This document shows, piece by piece, positions 1,576 to 27,289 of a stretch of 64,000 bases of DNA. The translations under genes were made by a program, and so were the position numbers. The DNA comes from a virus. Its lineage: Duplodnaviria; Caudoviricetes. Every line of letters begins with the position of its first letter. The first letter of the stretch is position 1. The stretch spans positions 1-64,000 of IMG/VR virus record IMGVR_UViG_3300014000_000001; one strand, 5' to 3'. Under the pieces are notes generated by a model. It worked only from the letters and a program-made list of their open reading frames with translations. It searched no databases and was not told the DNA's origin.

Positions 1576-1610
1576 AAGAAGGGTTCCCAATTGGGAACCC
1601 TTCTTCTTTA
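1576..1610 (+). terminator. intrinsic terminator (30-bp perfect palindrome)
   Basis: AAGAAGGGTTCCCAA|TTGGGAACCCTTCTT then CTTTATGC. Confidence 0.75.
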
Positions 1611-1631
1611 TGCTGTCTTTAGGAGAAAGTA

Positions 1632-8418: not shown

Positions 8419-8456
8419 GAATCATCCATCCCTAGGGATGGATGATTCTTTTTTTA
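8419..8456. terminator. bidirectional terminator (CCTAGG-centred palindrome)
   Basis: GAATCATCCATCCCT|AGGGATGGATGATTC + T-run, between convergent genes. Confidence 0.8.
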
Positions 8457-8465
8457 TGCTGTTAA

Positions 8466-20774: not shown

Positions 20775-20804
20775 AAGAAAGGAGCCTAGGCTCCTTTCTT
20801 TTTT
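20775..20804. terminator. bidirectional terminator (CCTAGG palindrome)
   Basis: AAGAAAGGAGCCT|AGGCTCCTTTCTT + T-run. Confidence 0.8.
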
Positions 20805-21726
20805 ATGCTTTTTTATTATGTTTCTTATAATCATCAATCTCAATACGGATGATGTCATTGTGTTGATTTAGTACAGTAAGTAGCGTTTCACATAAACTCA
20901 CTGTAGCTCCAGCAAAGGCAATGTTGTTGGATGAGCGTTCAATCACCTCTGAATAAGTTTTGATATTGTCAGTTGGAATAGTTTCATTACGAGTGCGCAT
21001 AATCAAACGATCCATCAACGCAGTTAAGTTCTTAATGTCCTTACTGTATTTATTCAGTTGTAGTTTTTTCAAACGTTGAGAAATACTCAATGCTACCTTA
21101 CCACATTCTTTCCATTCAGCGTTTGAATAATAAATAGAACCAAACTTCACAAACTCTTGAGTATGATTACTGGTAATCATCTTTGCGAGTTCATCTTTGG
21201 TTTTATCTACATCCTGAGAATACATCTTGATTTCAGTCAGTGATGAGATTGGACTCATTGAAGTTAACGCTTCTTTATCTGCAACTAACTGAGCTACTAC
21301 TTTAAGGAGCGCAGCTAATTCGAATTCAAGAATGTTCGCAGCAAGCGTTAGGGATTCATCTAATTTCTTAGTGTATGTGAAGATATCAGCTTTTAGTCCA
21401 AGTACGTTAGGTAAATCTACCTTAGCTAACGTAGTGTAAGGAATACTACTGATGTCGTAAACCACAGATGAATCTAAACGGAAATAAGTCTTAAAGCTGT
21501 TTAGGGTATCGTTCATGACAATCCCTAAAGTATTGATACGATCTCTTAGAAGATCATCCCAGTAATCCATAGCACCAGCCATACCTTCTAATTTAAGCAT
21601 GGTGATATTTTGACTGTTATTGGGTTGACCCAACATCAATTTCATTGGAAGCTCATGTTGGGATGTTACCCCAGGAACAGGCTGTAATGATTTAACAAAG
21701 GTGCGTTTTTGGGCAAAGATACTCAT
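20803..21726 (-). CDS. helical phiKZ-like virion/internal head protein
   Basis: Between RNase H and UvsX blocks; N-terminal segment ending LKLE-G resembles a propeptide; ATG 21726 preferred. Confidence 0.5.
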   Translation of the reverse strand: MSIFAQKRTFVKSLQPVPGVTSQHELPMKLMLGQPNNSQNITMLKLEGMAGAMDYWDDLLRDRINTLGIVMNDTLNSFKTYFRLDSSVVYDISSIPYTTLAKVDLPNVLGLKADIFTYTKKLDESLTLAANILEFELAALLKVVAQLVADKEALTSMSPISSLTEIKMYSQDVDKTKDELAKMITSNHTQEFVKFGSIYYSNAEWKECGKVALSISQRLKKLQLNKYSKDIKNLTALMDRLIMRTRNETIPTDNIKTYSEVIERSSNNIAFAGATVSLCETLLTVLNQHNDIIRIEIDDYKKHNKKA

Positions 21727-21780
21727 AATGGTTAACCTTATCTTTTGGGAAATAAACAACTCATACAAATCAAGTTGAAA

Positions 21781-21843: not shown

Positions 21844-22344
21844 ATGTACACAATTAAATTTGATAAAGTGGATATAGATTTAAATAAAGCAAGAATCATT
21901 GATACGTTGAAATTTCTATGCTCAGAGTTTAATGTTCCTCATAATCATCTCCACATCACTCATGGCGCTGCTGCCGTGATTAATGGTATTCGTGAAACTA
22001 CTCGGGATATTGACGTATGTGTACTGTCGCCAATTACATGGGAGGAGTTTAAAGGTATTGGGTTAGTTGAATGTAAACGTTATGAGTTGCTAGGTTTAAA
22101 TGTTGGGGCTGATGTGTTGGACTTTGGTATGGTTGAACTCCATTGGCCTGACGAATTTGACATTAGTCAGGATGTAAATGTTGTTGATGGTTTTCTGGTA
22201 TCTACAAACTATCAGATTCTCATTGAGCGTATTAAACTTGGTCGTGATAAAGATCTGGAAGAAGCTATTAAGTTAATTCCAGAACATTTTGCTAGCTTAC
22301 CAAAATACTTACAAGAACGCGCTGCTATGTTGGGGTGGGTGTGA
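21844..22344 (+). CDS. nucleotidyltransferase-fold protein
   Basis: ITHGAAAVINGIRETTRDIDV (GxA...DxD), C-terminal LGRDKD. Confidence 0.65.
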   Translation: MYTIKFDKVDIDLNKARIIDTLKFLCSEFNVPHNHLHITHGAAAVINGIRETTRDIDVCVLSPITWEEFKGIGLVECKRYELLGLNVGADVLDFGMVELHWPDEFDISQDVNVVDGFLVSTNYQILIERIKLGRDKDLEEAIKLIPEHFASLPKYLQERAAMLGWV

Positions 22345-23096
22345 TGAAAAGTTTAAAAGATCGTATTTTATCCCATACGTTTGCTATCGCTAAAGATAAA
22401 CGCCCTGAGCTTACCCCATATGTGGATATGCGTCAATCTGTTTTCGTTACAGGGATAGATAAAGCAACCTATCCTGAAATCAATGTCAATGAGGTAGATT
22501 TCTCGAAGTTGATGTTTAATGATTTTGTAGCAGTGTTGGAGTGTAGACATGACCCAAAGTCTACCGTTACTCATGATGCTGGAATTCTCATTCGGGTGTT
22601 TAGGAAGAATGAGGTGTATGTTTCTGGTACGTTTATGATGCTAGTAACCGAAGGTGGGATCAAGAATAGTTATGCTGTCCTTTGTGGGATTGAGCTCAAT
22701 TGTGCTAAACAAGAGGTTCAGTTGGTTCACATCCCTGAGATTAATACCAAGTTCGTAACTGAGAACGATAAGAATATTGTGGAGGAGTTCTTGAAGGTTA
22801 TTTATGTTACTCAGAATTATGAGCGTATGGTTAAGAAGAGGGTACCACGCAAATACGCTTATCAGAAGCTCCCATGGAGTGTTCGTGATACTCATATCGA
22901 ATATACAATTGATTTAAGTAAACCTAAGTATGTTCAAAATGAAGTATCTCAAGATAAACGAAAACATGCAGGGATGCCTGAACATGAACGACGTGGACAT
23001 TGGAGGACGTATAAAAGTGGAAAGAAGGTCTTTATTAAATCTTGCGAGATCAATAAAGGCAAAGGTAACAAAGTAGAGAAAAGTTATAAACTTTAG
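22344..23096 (+). CDS. hypothetical protein with basic HxRRGHWR C-terminal motif
   Basis: PEHERRGHWRTYKSGKKVFIK; TGATG coupling. Confidence 0.7.
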   Translation: MKSLKDRILSHTFAIAKDKRPELTPYVDMRQSVFVTGIDKATYPEINVNEVDFSKLMFNDFVAVLECRHDPKSTVTHDAGILIRVFRKNEVYVSGTFMMLVTEGGIKNSYAVLCGIELNCAKQEVQLVHIPEINTKFVTENDKNIVEEFLKVIYVTQNYERMVKKRVPRKYAYQKLPWSVRDTHIEYTIDLSKPKYVQNEVSQDKRKHAGMPEHERRGHWRTYKSGKKVFIKSCEINKGKGNKVEKSYKL

Positions 23097-23106
23097 GGGA
23101 AAGTAA

Positions 23107-23235
23107 ATGGATAAAACTGATTGGGTGATCGTTAGTGTTAATGTTTTAATTGGATCTGTCTTATTGTATATCTTTTGGGACATAATTCACCTTTATGCAT
23201 CTTCTTATATTTCATCTTACTTAAAGGGAAAGTAA
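23107..23235 (+). CDS. 42-aa membrane peptide (below ORF-track cutoff)
   Basis: MDKTDWVIVSVNVLIGSVLLYIFWDIIHLYASSYISSYLKGK; fills the gap exactly; same GGGAAAGTAAATG start context as next gene. Confidence 0.6.
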   Translation: MDKTDWVIVSVNVLIGSVLLYIFWDIIHLYASSYISSYLKGK

Positions 23236-23778
23236 ATGAACAATAACGTTCGTATTGTCGTTGATTTTGAAATCACCCCTGAGTTAGTGGGAGTTTATTC
23301 TCGCTCTACCTCTTGTCAATTTGTTGGGGAGAAAGATGGACCTTATTGTTTATCTAGATCGGTTCAAGAGTTACAACGTATATCGGTAACAAAGATGTAC
23401 GGTGGTAAAGAACGTTTAGGGATTATGAAGATTTATTATCAGGATCAATTGGTGGGGTTTGCACTACCTCGGATTCTACATGTCGATGAACATAAGATAT
23501 TTAAGATTGATGAAGGTCAAACCTATCACCGTGTAGGTACTGTGTATGTCGATCACCTTTATCGAGGAAAAGGAATTATTGCCCAAGCGATTAAGTTGTT
23601 TAAAGCCATTTACCCTAATCTAATTTGGACCTGTGATGAGAAGAATACCTCATCACAAAAAGCAGCTGTAAAGGGAGATCTTAAGTTTAGTCATTTGATC
23701 TATTTCAAATCAAAAACTGAATGGAGTTTTGAACCTATGCTTGATCATGTTAGAGTTAGTCACGTTTATGTAAGTTAA
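23236..23778 (+). CDS. GNAT-family acetyltransferase
   Basis: VGTVYVDHLYRGKGI (motif A) and NTSSQK (motif B). Confidence 0.7.
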   Translation: MNNNVRIVVDFEITPELVGVYSRSTSCQFVGEKDGPYCLSRSVQELQRISVTKMYGGKERLGIMKIYYQDQLVGFALPRILHVDEHKIFKIDEGQTYHRVGTVYVDHLYRGKGIIAQAIKLFKAIYPNLIWTCDEKNTSSQKAAVKGDLKFSHLIYFKSKTEWSFEPMLDHVRVSHVYVS

Positions 23779-23794
23779 AACCACAGAGGTCAAT

Positions 23795-24079
23795 ATGAAA
23801 TATTTACTCATCCTGATACCATTTTTGTTAGTAGGATGTCAACGCACATTGGAATGTAGACCCTATCAAGATTATGAAGTGGTTGCAGCTAATGGGTACA
23901 AATATCGAAATGAAATTAAATTCTTGTATGAACAATGTTTAAGTGAAGGTACCTACGAACCTAAAGATTGTTTAAAGGGTGCACAACGCATTTATTCAGC
24001 AGAACCAGCATTGTTGACATCAAACGAGGATCTTGCACGTGCTGAAGATCGACTATTGAAGTGCGGTTATTTAAAATAG
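23795..24079 (+). CDS. lipoprotein
   Basis: MKYLLILIPFLLVG|C lipobox; four more Cys. Confidence 0.75.
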   Translation: MKYLLILIPFLLVGCQRTLECRPYQDYEVVAANGYKYRNEIKFLYEQCLSEGTYEPKDCLKGAQRIYSAEPALLTSNEDLARAEDRLLKCGYLK

Positions 24080-24107
24080 AATTCATGCGTTAAATGAGGA
24101 AGCGCAT

Positions 24108-24144
24108 AAATAAAGCAGGGAAGGGTGTGCGCCCTTCCCTGCTT
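24108..24144. terminator. GC-rich hairpin with best U-tract on the minus strand
   Basis: AAGCAGGGAAGGG-tgtgcg-CCCTTCCCTGCTT; minus strand continues TTTATTTATG. Confidence 0.7.
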
Positions 24145-24151
24145 GTTGTAC

Positions 24152-24387
24152 GAGTCACTCTCCTCAAAGAGGAGTAATTCATGAGAAAATCTACTGTGTT
24201 AGAAGTACTTAAAGTACTTCACCTCACTCTGGTAATCATCCACTTATTACTTAAGATCTGTTTAGCTCTTATGTCGTAATCGGACTGCTCATGAGTTATG
24301 CCTGATTAGCCCAATCGATTTGTCAGGTATTGTTAAATGCTGTTATGCTCTAAATAACGCAACAACCCACTATCATCAGGGTGACTC
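24152..24387. ncRNA. candidate structured RNA (mRNA fold or antisense sRNA)
   Basis: Closing helix GAGTCAC/GTGACTC plus at least four internal helices. Confidence 0.4.
24181..24279 (+). CDS. 32-aa hydrophobic peptide (type I toxin-like)
   Basis: MRKSTVLEVLKVLHLTLVIIHLLLKICLALMS; GAGGAG SD 6 nt upstream, inside hairpin CTCCTC-aaa-GAGGAG. Confidence 0.5.
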   Translation: MRKSTVLEVLKVLHLTLVIIHLLLKICLALMS

Positions 24388-24435
24388 TATATAATATATC
24401 AATCTTGTAAATTAATCGCAGAGGTAAATTAAATC

Positions 24436-24777
24436 ATGTCTAAATTTATTGAATTTCATGATGAGCAAGGTGTTAAGATTCTAACTCACACTGAAGGGTT
24501 AGTATTACGGTTAACCACTGAGCTTGAGATTAGTAACTCTACCAATACCTGGAAGATTACTAATAATCCTCAGACAGCCTATGTTAATATTCGGGCTCAA
24601 TTAGGAATGGGCATTAGTGGTAACAACCCAGGACGTAAAAAACAGAAAGTATCAGTTAATGGAGTTGTTTACGATTCTGTATCCATTGCTGCGGCGGCTA
24701 TGAACATTACTCAACCTGCTTTATCTCAATTATTAGCGAAAGGCGGAGATGAAAACATATTTCGTGTAGAAGATTAG
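24436..24777 (+). CDS. small protein with NUMOD1-like DNA-binding C-terminus
   Basis: NPGRKKQKVSVNGVVYDSVSIAAAAMNITQPALSQLL. Confidence 0.55.
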   Translation: MSKFIEFHDEQGVKILTHTEGLVLRLTTELEISNSTNTWKITNNPQTAYVNIRAQLGMGISGNNPGRKKQKVSVNGVVYDSVSIAAAAMNITQPALSQLLAKGGDENIFRVED

Positions 24778-24893
24778 ATAAAGCCCTAAAGGGCTTTTCT
24801 TTTTTGTCCAACCACGTCCAATATTGTTTATTTTTTTATCTTTAGGTCGATTCATTTGGAACAATATTTTTCAGCAAATGTAAGGTTTAAGCA

Positions 24894-26393
24894 ATGGGAT
24901 TATTCAAGAAAGAAGAACGACCAGAATCACACTTTACCACTCCTCGATTTCCAATTCATCCATTGGTTGACATCATTACTGGGGAATGGGTTGTGGGACA
25001 TAAAGGGGATATGATTTGTAATGGTGGTCTTTGTCCACACATGGCAATTACAGGGAAAGGTAACTCGAATAAAACATTGATCATGTTATCTATCATCATG
25101 ACCTTCTTAATTCGTAATCGTCATGTGACTTTTGATATTGATTCACAAGTCTATGAAACCGAAAATACATTAGAATACATGCGTTGTATTCAAATTGCTC
25201 GTGGGATGGCAGCTTATGCAGGTTATACCGATGAAGAGATTGAAGAGATCATTAGTTGGATTTCTGATCACTTTGTTCTTCGTAACTCATCTAAACTTGC
25301 AGGGAATGCATTCTACGATGAGATGAATGAATTGTGTGACGAACGTTTAAAGCGTACCAAAGATAAAATCCTTTTACCGTTCAATGACTTCAAAGGAAAA
25401 CCTATTGAAATCCATACCCCACATCCATGTGGTATTGATTCATTCTCAGCCTTAGAACCCGGAGTGGTTACCGAGAAATTCTTAGATAACAACACTGCAG
25501 GTTCTTCTGATAACAATACCATGTATTTAAAAGAAGCTGGCGCTAAAACCCAAATGCTGCAAAAGTGGTTGAATCAAAATCCTCGATCTAGCATTTACAT
25601 GATCTCATCTGCCCATATGGGTGACAACATCAACATGGACCCGCGAGCCCCTGCTGAGAAAAAGATGATGTTCATGAAGCAAAATCATAAGCTTAAGAAC
25701 GTTCCGGAGAAGTATTACTTCTATGTGTCGTGTATGTTCTTTGTCAACGGTTCTGTTCCTTTAGTGAACAATGATAAAGTTCCACTTTATCCAATGGATT
25801 CTGATGATAAAGAGAAACGTGACTCTAAAGACATTCGTCTTGAATTAATTGTACTGCGTAATAAGCATGGTCAGTCTGGCGCTTATCTTCCTTTGATTGC
25901 TAACCAGAATACTGGAATTGATTGGCACCTATCTGCTTTTGATTATTGTAAAGACAATGGTCGTTGGGGGTTTGATGGTAATGATCGTACTTACGTTTTA
26001 GATTTGCTCCCTGATGTTAAGCTTGATCGTAATGTGATCAAACGTAAACTGCGCACAGATGCTCGCCTACGTCGCGCTGTGGACATTAACTGTGAAATGC
26101 AACTAATGTACCGCTATCACTTTGATAAGCTACCACGGCATTTACGTTGCACTCCTAAGGAACTTTACGATGGGCTTAAAGAGTTAGGTTATGATTGGGA
26201 TATGATTCTAGGGGAAACCCGTAGTTATTATACGCTTGATCATTATGAAAATCCTGTTCCGCCTATTTCAACTTATGATTTACTTCGTATGCGTGTAGGT
26301 GAATATATCCCTTATTGGATGAGTGAAGAGCAGATTCCTGACCTTGTGAAACAAATGCGTGATAAACCGAAAGAGGTTGTTCAAGCGGCATGA
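24894..26393 (+). CDS. uvsX: UvsX/RecA-like ATPase (phiKZ gp152-like)
   Basis: Walker A-like ITGKGNSNKT, YETENT, Walker B-like GIDSFS, RNKHGQSG; synteny. Confidence 0.75.
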   Translation: MGLFKKEERPESHFTTPRFPIHPLVDIITGEWVVGHKGDMICNGGLCPHMAITGKGNSNKTLIMLSIIMTFLIRNRHVTFDIDSQVYETENTLEYMRCIQIARGMAAYAGYTDEEIEEIISWISDHFVLRNSSKLAGNAFYDEMNELCDERLKRTKDKILLPFNDFKGKPIEIHTPHPCGIDSFSALEPGVVTEKFLDNNTAGSSDNNTMYLKEAGAKTQMLQKWLNQNPRSSIYMISSAHMGDNINMDPRAPAEKKMMFMKQNHKLKNVPEKYYFYVSCMFFVNGSVPLVNNDKVPLYPMDSDDKEKRDSKDIRLELIVLRNKHGQSGAYLPLIANQNTGIDWHLSAFDYCKDNGRWGFDGNDRTYVLDLLPDVKLDRNVIKRKLRTDARLRRAVDINCEMQLMYRYHFDKLPRHLRCTPKELYDGLKELGYDWDMILGETRSYYTLDHYENPVPPISTYDLLRMRVGEYIPYWMSEEQIPDLVKQMRDKPKEVVQAA

Positions 26394-26596
26394 TCAAGAA
26401 AGGTAGTTTAGTCATCCCTGTGGGTGATTTAATTGATCCTAAGTTGGTGAGAGTGCGTAGAGTTGTGAATGTAACTCGGGATGGGAAACGTGTCCTCACC
26501 ACATTAACTTTAGGTGGGCATAAGTGGGTAGATGTTAATCAATTCCGTTTAGCTACTAAAGAAGAAATTGCTAATTCAGTCTTCGCACCTTCTTAG
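26390..26596 (+). CDS. hypothetical protein
   Basis: ATGA-coupled 68-aa ORF. Confidence 0.65.
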   Translation: MIKKGSLVIPVGDLIDPKLVRVRRVVNVTRDGKRVLTTLTLGGHKWVDVNQFRLATKEEIANSVFAPS

Positions 26597-26668: not shown

Positions 26669-27289
26669 ATGTTAGATCATCAGGTGTCCATTCTATCTTT
26701 GATGTGGTTTCAAGAATGTCATAACCGACACTACCATCAAGATATTCATCATTTACAAACCATGAAAGCCATCTCACACTTTCAACACCATCTTGTAAAA
26801 TATAATGGACAGATTGATCGTCAGTTGGATATTGGTAAGTTTGCTAAAGTTGAAATTATCGATGCTATGATCTGTTGTATTGGTGCGTTGAGTCGTTTAA
26901 ACTTTGATATGTCTGAACTCTATCGAAAGGTAATGGGTGAGACTAAGACATCAAAACTTTATGTGACATTCCCCGACCTTTATCAGATATATTCAATTCT
27001 TCGTTGGAATGAAATATCAGTTGTTTTACAGAACATCTCTAAGCTGGTTGAAGGTTGGGATCATGTCGAAGCTCTCCCCTATCGGGAAGGATTAACCAAG
27101 AACTTCTCTGAAGCTTTCATGGTGTATTATGGGTTATATATTGACAGTGGTGAAACAGGGTTCGTTGATGCTTATGTTGATCGTCTGACTAAGATCAAGG
27201 AAAAGAACATGTTCCACGAAGACTATTTAAAAGATCAATTACCAAGAGGTGCATTAAGACCTCTTAAGTTTAAAGAAGAGGAATTGTAA
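26669..27289 (+). CDS. hypothetical helical protein (possibly MazG-like)
   Basis: HHLVKYNG...EIIDAMIC; fold guess is weak. Confidence 0.5.
   Translation: MLDHQVSILSLMWFQECHNRHYHQDIHHLQTMKAISHFQHHLVKYNGQIDRQLDIGKFAKVEIIDAMICCIGALSRLNFDMSELYRKVMGETKTSKLYVTFPDLYQIYSILRWNEISVVLQNISKLVEGWDHVEALPYREGLTKNFSEAFMVYYGLYIDSGETGFVDAYVDRLTKIKEKNMFHEDYLKDQLPRGALRPLKFKEEEL

Follow-up and report, generated by a model that had tools for sequence, protein, structure and literature searches.

A candidate gene of a giant phiKZ-like phage for a 32-residue membrane-type peptide, with predicted silencing through the fold of its mRNA

The intergenic gap and its surroundings

The viral record analysed measures 232.8 kb, is 86% complete and has a G+C content of 38%; its first 64 kb make up the stretch of DNA studied here (the window). 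A UvsX-like recombinase encoded at 24894-26393 shares 33-36% identity with UvsX of phiKZ-like jumbo phages, and by sequence the phage is a giant, phiKZ-like one. The phiKZ-like giant phages are known as a virulent group. No tRNA or tmRNA genes were found. Neither tblastn nor a genome search detected a homologue of the phiKZ chimallin (gp54, the nuclear shell protein) in the 86%-complete record, and therefore no argument was drawn from uncoupled transcription and translation.

A gap without called genes extends from 24080 to 24435. At 356 nt it ranks sixth in size within the genome, where the median gap is 46 nt. The gene upstream of it (23795-24079, + strand) encodes a 94-aa lipoprotein-like product with a signal peptide and the lipobox LVGC, and closes a + strand gene run that starts at a promoter motif near 21780. 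This gene showed no variation over about 25 contigs. Its lone remote homologue (32% identity) lies on a bacterial contig beside flotillin, YqiJ and HsdM genes, a context without a comparable gap, and the lipoprotein was therefore rejected as an anchor for distant loci. Downstream of the gap, a 113-aa gene (24436-24777, + strand) has its own SD, AGAGGTAA, and encodes a weak I-TevI-type/HTH DNA-binding C-terminus; the hairpin at 24780-24797 serves as its + strand terminator. In the near-identical relatives L003, L007 and L008, the C-terminal HTH half of this gene (window 24586-24779) is replaced by an unrelated HTH. Variant forms of the gene encode a 129-aa version or are split into 75 + 62 aa, with the first 50 codons retained.

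All features that a previous sequence-only reading had listed for this gap were found in their places. Directly 3′ of the lipoprotein-like gene stop, the MFE fold and inverted repeats define a small hairpin on the + strand (ATGCGTT...AGCGCAT, 24085-24107), which has an inverted partial repeat at 24343-24361. It is followed by a hairpin with a perfect 13-bp stem (24113-24144) and by a 32-codon open reading frame, ORF32 (MRKSTVLEVLKVLHLTLVIIHLLLKICLALMS; 24181-24279, + strand), that gene finders had not called. Near the right end lies a near-palindromic block, TATATAATATAT (24388-24399), which matched the main promoter motif of the phage on neither strand and is a possible candidate for a + strand promoter of the 113-aa gene. 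The sequence CTCTATATAATA was found again near 106198 on the minus strand, where it precedes another gene by about 50 nt. A mobile element (a MITE with GAGTCAC terminal repeats) was considered and rejected because the genome contains no further copy.

RNA fold and reading frame

The SD of ORF32 lies in the hairpin CUCCUC-AAA-GAGGAG (24161-24175, + strand; -7.6 kcal/mol), so that the locked SD described in the sequence-only reading is also the predicted state. The AUG is contained in the 5′ arm (24174-24185) of a second + strand helix, the 3′ arm of which (24288-24299) begins 9 nt past the ORF stop codon. Pairing of AATTCATGAG (24176-24185) with CTCATGAGTT (24288-24297), as previously proposed, was recovered and was extended to 12 bp in the MFE fold. 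A 9-bp + strand hairpin, GAAGTACTT / AAGTACTTC (GAAGUACUU / AAGUACUUC; 24202-24220), lies inside the ORF, and another, ATGCCTGA...TCAGGTAT (24298-24330, + strand), with loop positions 24309/24310 variable in relatives, lies beyond it. The domain is closed by pairing of GAGUCACUC (24152-24160) with GGGUGACUC (24379-24387) on the + strand; the GAGTCAC/GTGACTC pairing noticed earlier (24152-24158 / 24381-24387) thus grew to 9 bp in the MFE fold. As an alternative long-range pairing, the inverted partial duplication 24086-24109 / 24343-24361 (TGCGTTA...GCATAA / TTATGC...TAACGCA) could form a helix enclosing the 13-bp hairpin, a putative terminator, together with the whole peptide domain.

On the + strand, the 245-nt core (24148-24392) folded at -67.6 kcal/mol, compared with -47.7 ± 4.3 kcal/mol for dinucleotide shuffles (z = -4.65; 0 of 200 as stable). 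The minus strand of the same core reached -63.7 kcal/mol (z = -2.59). As a second background, real 245-nt windows were drawn from the first 89 kb of the genome and corrected for composition by regression; against these the core ranked in the top 1.2% on the + strand and the top 11% on the minus strand, and several other windows reached equal fold scores. The structure is real, biased to the + strand and not unique in the genome. The bias arises because the main + strand helices contain 6-7 G-U pairs, which turn into A-C mismatches on the other strand. In addition, the native ORF32 sequence was more stable than 98.3% of the synonymous recodings of codons 2-32 (p = 0.017), suggesting that codon choice in ORF32 also serves the fold.

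Substitutions in relatives point in the same direction. A24216G, present in all relatives, lies inside the 24202-24220 hairpin and yields U-G on the + strand and C-A on the minus strand, and 24380 G>A in one relative (L008) converts a U-G pair of the closing helix to U-A. The three substitutions at paired positions were all U-A/U-G exchanges, with pairing preserved on the + strand only. In the covariation check that the sequence-only reading had proposed, 0 of 75 pairs were compensatory, three showed one-sided G-U/A-U changes and two were broken in a weak helix, in a set of four distinct sequences that are 99% identical. Without a compensatory double change, the fold cannot be confirmed by covariation.

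These data also bear on the earlier suggestion of a stand-alone minus-strand ncRNA with its own function, which would span about 250-280 nt from a promoter near 24400 to a terminator at 24113. The minus strand does carry a structured block that is flanked by an AT-rich block on one side and by a terminator in the right orientation on the other, and its fold beats the shuffles too. However, among windows over the first 89 kb that fold ranks no better than the 11th percentile, the helices depend on the 6-7 G-U pairs that become A-C on this strand, and the 9-bp hairpin has a C-A mismatch in all relatives, the window sequence excepted. A promoter match was not found either, and such an RNA is disfavoured as very improbable.

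Accessibility of the start site was assessed from predicted unpaired probabilities of the SD and the AUG in several transcript contexts, and 208 gene starts were folded alike. In transcripts extending past 24288-24299, thermodynamic prediction gave unpaired probabilities of 0.03-0.12 for the SD and 0.001 for the AUG. In a transcript ending at 24290, the unpaired probability of the AUG rose to 0.59. The product of the SD and AUG accessibilities of ORF32 was the lowest of the 208 starts. Prediction thus bears out the proposed translational occlusion, with the SD and the AUG almost fully paired.

Several features of ORF32 are those of a gene. Its SD, AGGAG, lies 6 nt ahead of the ATG. With both strands of the 233-kb genome counted, the arrangement AGGAG + 4-8 nt + ATG occurs only 30 times. 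Called gene starts account for at least 10 of these, and ORF32 is among the few occurrences outside them; GAGGAG may nevertheless be present for the hairpin instead of for ribosomes. Over 11 related contigs (five haplotypes), all four variable sites of ORF32 (24216, 24231, 24234 and 24243) were third codon positions, for which the chance is (1/3)^4 = 0.012. Three of the four substitutions were synonymous and one was H>Q. The same spacing-by-three pattern of variation was present in a neighbouring real gene. Synonymous codon usage stood at the 30th percentile of the coding model, and 5% of composition-only recodings scored as high. Among ordinary gene segments the whole-codon score (-0.07 per codon) ranked at the 0.7th percentile and among the 14 hydrophobic ones at the 7th, with 28% of spurious ORFs scoring higher. 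This score was discarded as evidence because hydrophobic composition largely determines it and because it loses its power to discriminate when hydrophobic segments of real genes serve as the reference; it is uninformative or mildly negative for coding.

The ORF32 peptide has a mean Eisenberg hydrophobicity of 0.57-0.64 and a low hydrophobic moment (0.22-0.29), and is predicted to form one helix or transmembrane segment, along which K11, H14, H21 and K25 make up a polar stripe. ORF32 is single-copy in the genome. Its peptide had no match in a 15-billion-protein collection and hit no Pfam or NCBIfam family at E <= 1, the Hok/Gef, Ldr, TisB and Fst types included. PHROGs returned nothing for ORF32 or the RNA, and Rfam gave no match at E <= 10 over 22000-26500. 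Other uncalled small ORFs with an SD and clear transmembrane segments were seen at 23107-23235 (42 aa), 86924-87055 (43 aa) and 90514-90636 (40 aa), and such ORFs in the genome count as precedent for ORF32. The hydrophobic 32-aa ORF pointed out by the sequence-only reading is present, and its SD, substitution pattern and synonymous codon choice suggest that it is probably a real, never-called gene.

Alternatively, the ORF could be spurious and the gap could encode a non-coding structured + strand RNA. This could, for instance, stabilise or mark for processing the 3′ UTR of the lipoprotein operon, or belong to a long 5′ leader in front of the 113-aa gene. The strong, + strand-biased fold favours such an RNA, and the precise arrangement of that fold around the SD and the AUG argues against it. 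The peptide is without a homologue and its amino-acid and codon composition is like that of out-of-frame ORFs of AT-rich DNA, whereas the synonymous codon usage and the placing of all four substitutions at third codon positions fit coding, and the SD is strong and ideally spaced. We consider this reading unlikely.

The element was then followed in relatives. In ENA and Logan assemblies, every close relative (94-99% identity) retains the gap at 355-356 nt. A 100-nt profile showed that divergence among them is mosaic, with recombination patches of 10-30% versus long stretches of 0%. The gap has 4-10 differences and is more variable than the invariant lipoprotein gene and than the 500 nt before it. 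Conservation as a sign of selection (the gap evolving more slowly than third codon positions) was withdrawn, because mosaic divergence and the greater variability of the gap relative to the lipoprotein gene beside it make the test invalid. Conservation of the gap does not exceed that of its immediate neighbours, and no selection above the background level is evident. Sharp recombination patches (17-34 differences per 100 nt) were seen at 23300-23600 and 26900-27100 in otherwise identical relatives; they fall within a GNAT-like 180-aa gene and a 206-aa gene.

At 62-83% UvsX identity, relatives have neither the lipoprotein gene nor the gap nor the 113-aa gene. The span between a conserved minus-strand gene of 307-321 aa and the UvsX-like gene (window 21844-24777) is a hypervariable accessory island, and in five of these relatives (L016, L017, L022, L023 and L024) it was seen to hold 0 to 6 different small genes. 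Searches of the phage collection by blastn and tblastn found no distant homologue of the element; viral contigs were scanned twice with exact or degenerate patterns, which returned nothing or chance matches within a coding region, and one pattern scan of metagenome contigs returned nothing. Relatives of 70-90% identity in this island were absent from the collections searched. As regards the conservation asked for by the sequence-only reading, the element was found in the 94-99% relatives only and is absent at 62-83% UvsX identity. The element, a prediction in all its parts, is confined to one narrow lineage.

This distribution favours a reading in which the gap has no dedicated function and is leftover DNA at a recombination junction of the hypervariable island, its terminator and promoter being accompanied by inverted repeats that arose by chance. 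Island cargo differs in each of the more distant relatives, and the mosaic divergence shows no excess conservation of the gap. Chance repeats, however, do not readily account for a fold that none of 200 shuffles equalled, for helices that lie one inside another about a start site whose SD is strong, or for the recoding (p = 0.017) and codon-position (p = 0.012) results. Lack of function is highly improbable.

Transcription signals on both strands

The phiKZ terminator motif has been described as a hairpin followed by TTAT (PMC10914365), and the phiKZ late-promoter core as TATG with +1 at the G (PMC4666361). In the present genome, about 40 GC-rich hairpins, many of them centred on CCTAGG, are directly followed by TTTATGC (for example, window 1576-1611, 8419-8459 and 20775-20807 in the genome motif scan), a tail that unites the phiKZ terminator motif and the late-promoter core TATG. 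The 13-bp hairpin at 24113-24144 belongs to this set in the minus orientation, where its tail TATTTATGCG matches the motif. The + strand tail, GTTGTACGAG, does not match. A GC-rich hairpin followed by TTAT(G), the phiKZ-type intrinsic terminator, is therefore found on the minus strand only (CCCTGCTT-TATTTATGCG), and the minus-strand U-tract assigned to this hairpin by the sequence-only reading was verified as a T-rich tail confined to that strand. The loop of the hairpin (24126-24131) reads TGTGCG or CGCACA, inverted among near-identical relatives; this is a flip polymorphism of the palindrome, which probably arises through template switching.

The main promoter motif of the phage, TTTCAGATATAYATTATCTAAGTGAA, spans 26 nt; each of its 31 copies lies on the + strand, 20-50 nt ahead of a start codon (for example, window 20325, 21780 and 54758, and 168904 of the whole record). 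It probably represents the early-promoter class. Part of the TTTCAGATATAYATTATCTAAGTGAA sites also carry TATATTAC-AGAGGTAA right before the ATG. The motif is absent from both strands of the gap, with best PWM scores of -8 bits (+) and -15 bits (minus) versus >20 bits at the 31 real sites.

No + strand promoter was recognised between the 24113-24144 hairpin and the SD, and no + strand terminator was found between ORF32 and the next gene, so that the discrete toxin mRNA of type I systems, with its own promoter and 3′ terminator, was not seen here. Because ORF32 has no + strand promoter of its own, its mRNA would need read-through from the operon starting near 21780. TATG does occur on the + strand at 24297-24300 and 24344-24347, where it could start late transcripts of the downstream gene, a point in favour of the non-coding reading.

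An antisense RNA that started to the right of the ORF, ran across the ORF and the SD and ended at the hairpin 24144-24113 would turn the locus into a full type I toxin-antitoxin-like cassette, in which the minus-strand RNA would control translation or stability of the peptide mRNA. Beyond the self-silenced peptide gene itself, what backs this cassette is the orientation of the terminator, the hairpin tail TATTTATGCG fitting the phage motif on the minus strand only. There is precedent for such an arrangement: antisense-oriented terminators account for 9% of those mapped across six phages, and four antisense RNAs were found in phiKZ (PMC10914365). In addition, SD sequestration and 5′-3′ closure are descriptors for finding type I toxin mRNAs (PMC8594479). 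The minus side of the hairpin 24780-24797 has, by eye, a TTATC tail; if leftward transcription is stopped by this hairpin, the start of a minus transcript that ends at 24113 would have to lie within about 650 nt.

The start of such a transcript is less well marked. For the minus strand of the gap, a terminator motif is present and no promoter was recognised. The AT-rich block near 24400, from which the sequence-only reading had the antisense RNA start, is present (GATATATTATAT, about 24402-24391), but the match to the main promoter motif there is -15 bits. The minus strand of the gap contains no TATG, the nearest being at 24756 inside the next gene, about 370 nt rightward. A sigma-70-like match at 24411-24384 on the minus strand (9/12) is at chance level, and phiKZ transcription is independent of host RNA polymerase (PMC4666361). 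Furthermore, other minus-only hairpins between + strand genes overlie stop codons of + strand genes, so that orientation judged from the tail is unreliable alone and may be coincidental. The element is also single-copy and matches no known family. On this evidence the cassette is possible, though doubtful. That a phiKZ-like giant phage uses its own RNA polymerases for a type I toxin-antitoxin-like cassette, in which a self-locked mRNA and a fully overlapping antisense RNA, ending at a phage terminator in antisense orientation, time or gate a membrane-active peptide, for instance for rival-phage exclusion or lysis timing, seems rather doubtful still.

Proposed silencing of the peptide gene and comparison with known systems

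The reading that we favour, and regard as somewhat probable, is that the gap holds an unannotated gene for a 32-residue membrane-type peptide that is kept off by its own mRNA fold. It draws on what was observed in silico: helices biased to the + strand, a start site occluded to an extreme degree and variation of a coding-like kind. ORF32 would lie within a + strand RNA domain of roughly 236 nt (24152-24387). The local anti-SD hairpin would capture the SD as soon as it is transcribed, the 12-bp helix would tie the AUG to the sequence just past the stop codon and the 9-bp helix would shut the whole domain, leaving translation off by default. Peptide would be produced only when the fold is opened by RNA processing, by a ribosome arriving from upstream or by pairing with another RNA. 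We infer that the + strand RNA exists, most simply via read-through from the upstream operon, and that the peptide is made and inserted into a membrane. That the peptide acts on the envelope, for example in exclusion or in the timing of lysis, is a guess. Within the lineage-specific accessory island, ORF32 is one of several genes and stands beside the lipoprotein gene.

If the peptide is real, it adds to the uncalled small membrane proteins of giant phages and provides a clear case of a phage gene silenced by its own mRNA fold. The locus would also be an easy test bed for mRNA-structure control of translation in phiKZ-like phages. If an antisense partner exists too, RNA-controlled toxin-type modules would extend beyond plasmids, chromosomes and temperate phages to a phiKZ-like phage using its own RNA polymerases.

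A type I toxin-antitoxin reading of the gap is possible. The element has two descriptors of type I toxin mRNAs, as far as modelling goes: a small hydrophobic ORF, its product being a membrane-type peptide of fewer than 60 aa, and SD sequestration with 5′-3′ closure, the SD and start of the ORF32 mRNA being sequestered by thermodynamic prediction. A discrete toxin mRNA and a match to a known type I toxin family were looked for and not found, the antisense RNA and any toxicity of the peptide are hypothetical, and the element is not to be filed in any known family.

In hok/sok of plasmid R1, a small membrane peptide is encoded by a full-length mRNA that is inactive through 5′-3′ fold-back and an occluded start. 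By analogy, a small membrane peptide, fold-back pairing and an occluded start are predicted here. The reading frame ORF27 (24094-24177), open in all variants, stops 3 nt before the ORF32 AUG and in this is loosely like mok; it was rejected as a mok-like leader and is not supported as a gene because it has no SD and its changes are non-conservative (R>H, VR>AH). Unlike hok/sok, the element shows no Hok/Gef match and no short antisense gene with a recognisable promoter, ORF32 is without its own + strand promoter or terminator, and the carrier is a lytic jumbo phage. The ibs/sib loci of E. coli are multi-copy and encode Ibs peptides of 18-19 aa. The putative antisense RNA would span the whole ORF, as in ibs/sib, whereas ORF32 is single-copy and encodes 32 aa. 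The resemblance to ibs/sib drawn by the sequence-only reading does not extend to homology, as the single-copy locus gave no match in Rfam (down to E = 10), Pfam or NCBIfam.

Some type I toxin mRNAs are held by structure at or around the SD, and aapA1/IsoA1 of Helicobacter pylori is an example. T1TAdb describes such mRNAs as having a local anti-SD stem-loop or a 5′-3′ long-distance interaction (PMC8594479). The ORF32 mRNA differs from them in being without a 3′ terminator and sequence homology, and in having an antisense RNA that is only putative. It resembles them in the predicted anti-SD directly upstream of the SD, the 5′-3′ domain closure and a hydrophobic peptide of about 30 aa.

With ONT-cappable-seq, RNAs and terminators in antisense orientation have been mapped in phages, phiKZ having four of the RNAs (PMC10914365), and sRNAs were reported in 201phi2-1 (PMC11512511). 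The RNAs of these two studies, compared here by description across phages with 33-36% UvsX identity, differ from the present element in that none is tied to a small peptide gene. The likeness lies in a phiKZ-type terminator in antisense orientation between same-strand genes and in a structured intergenic RNA, such as occurs in giant phages; both are predicted for the gap described here.
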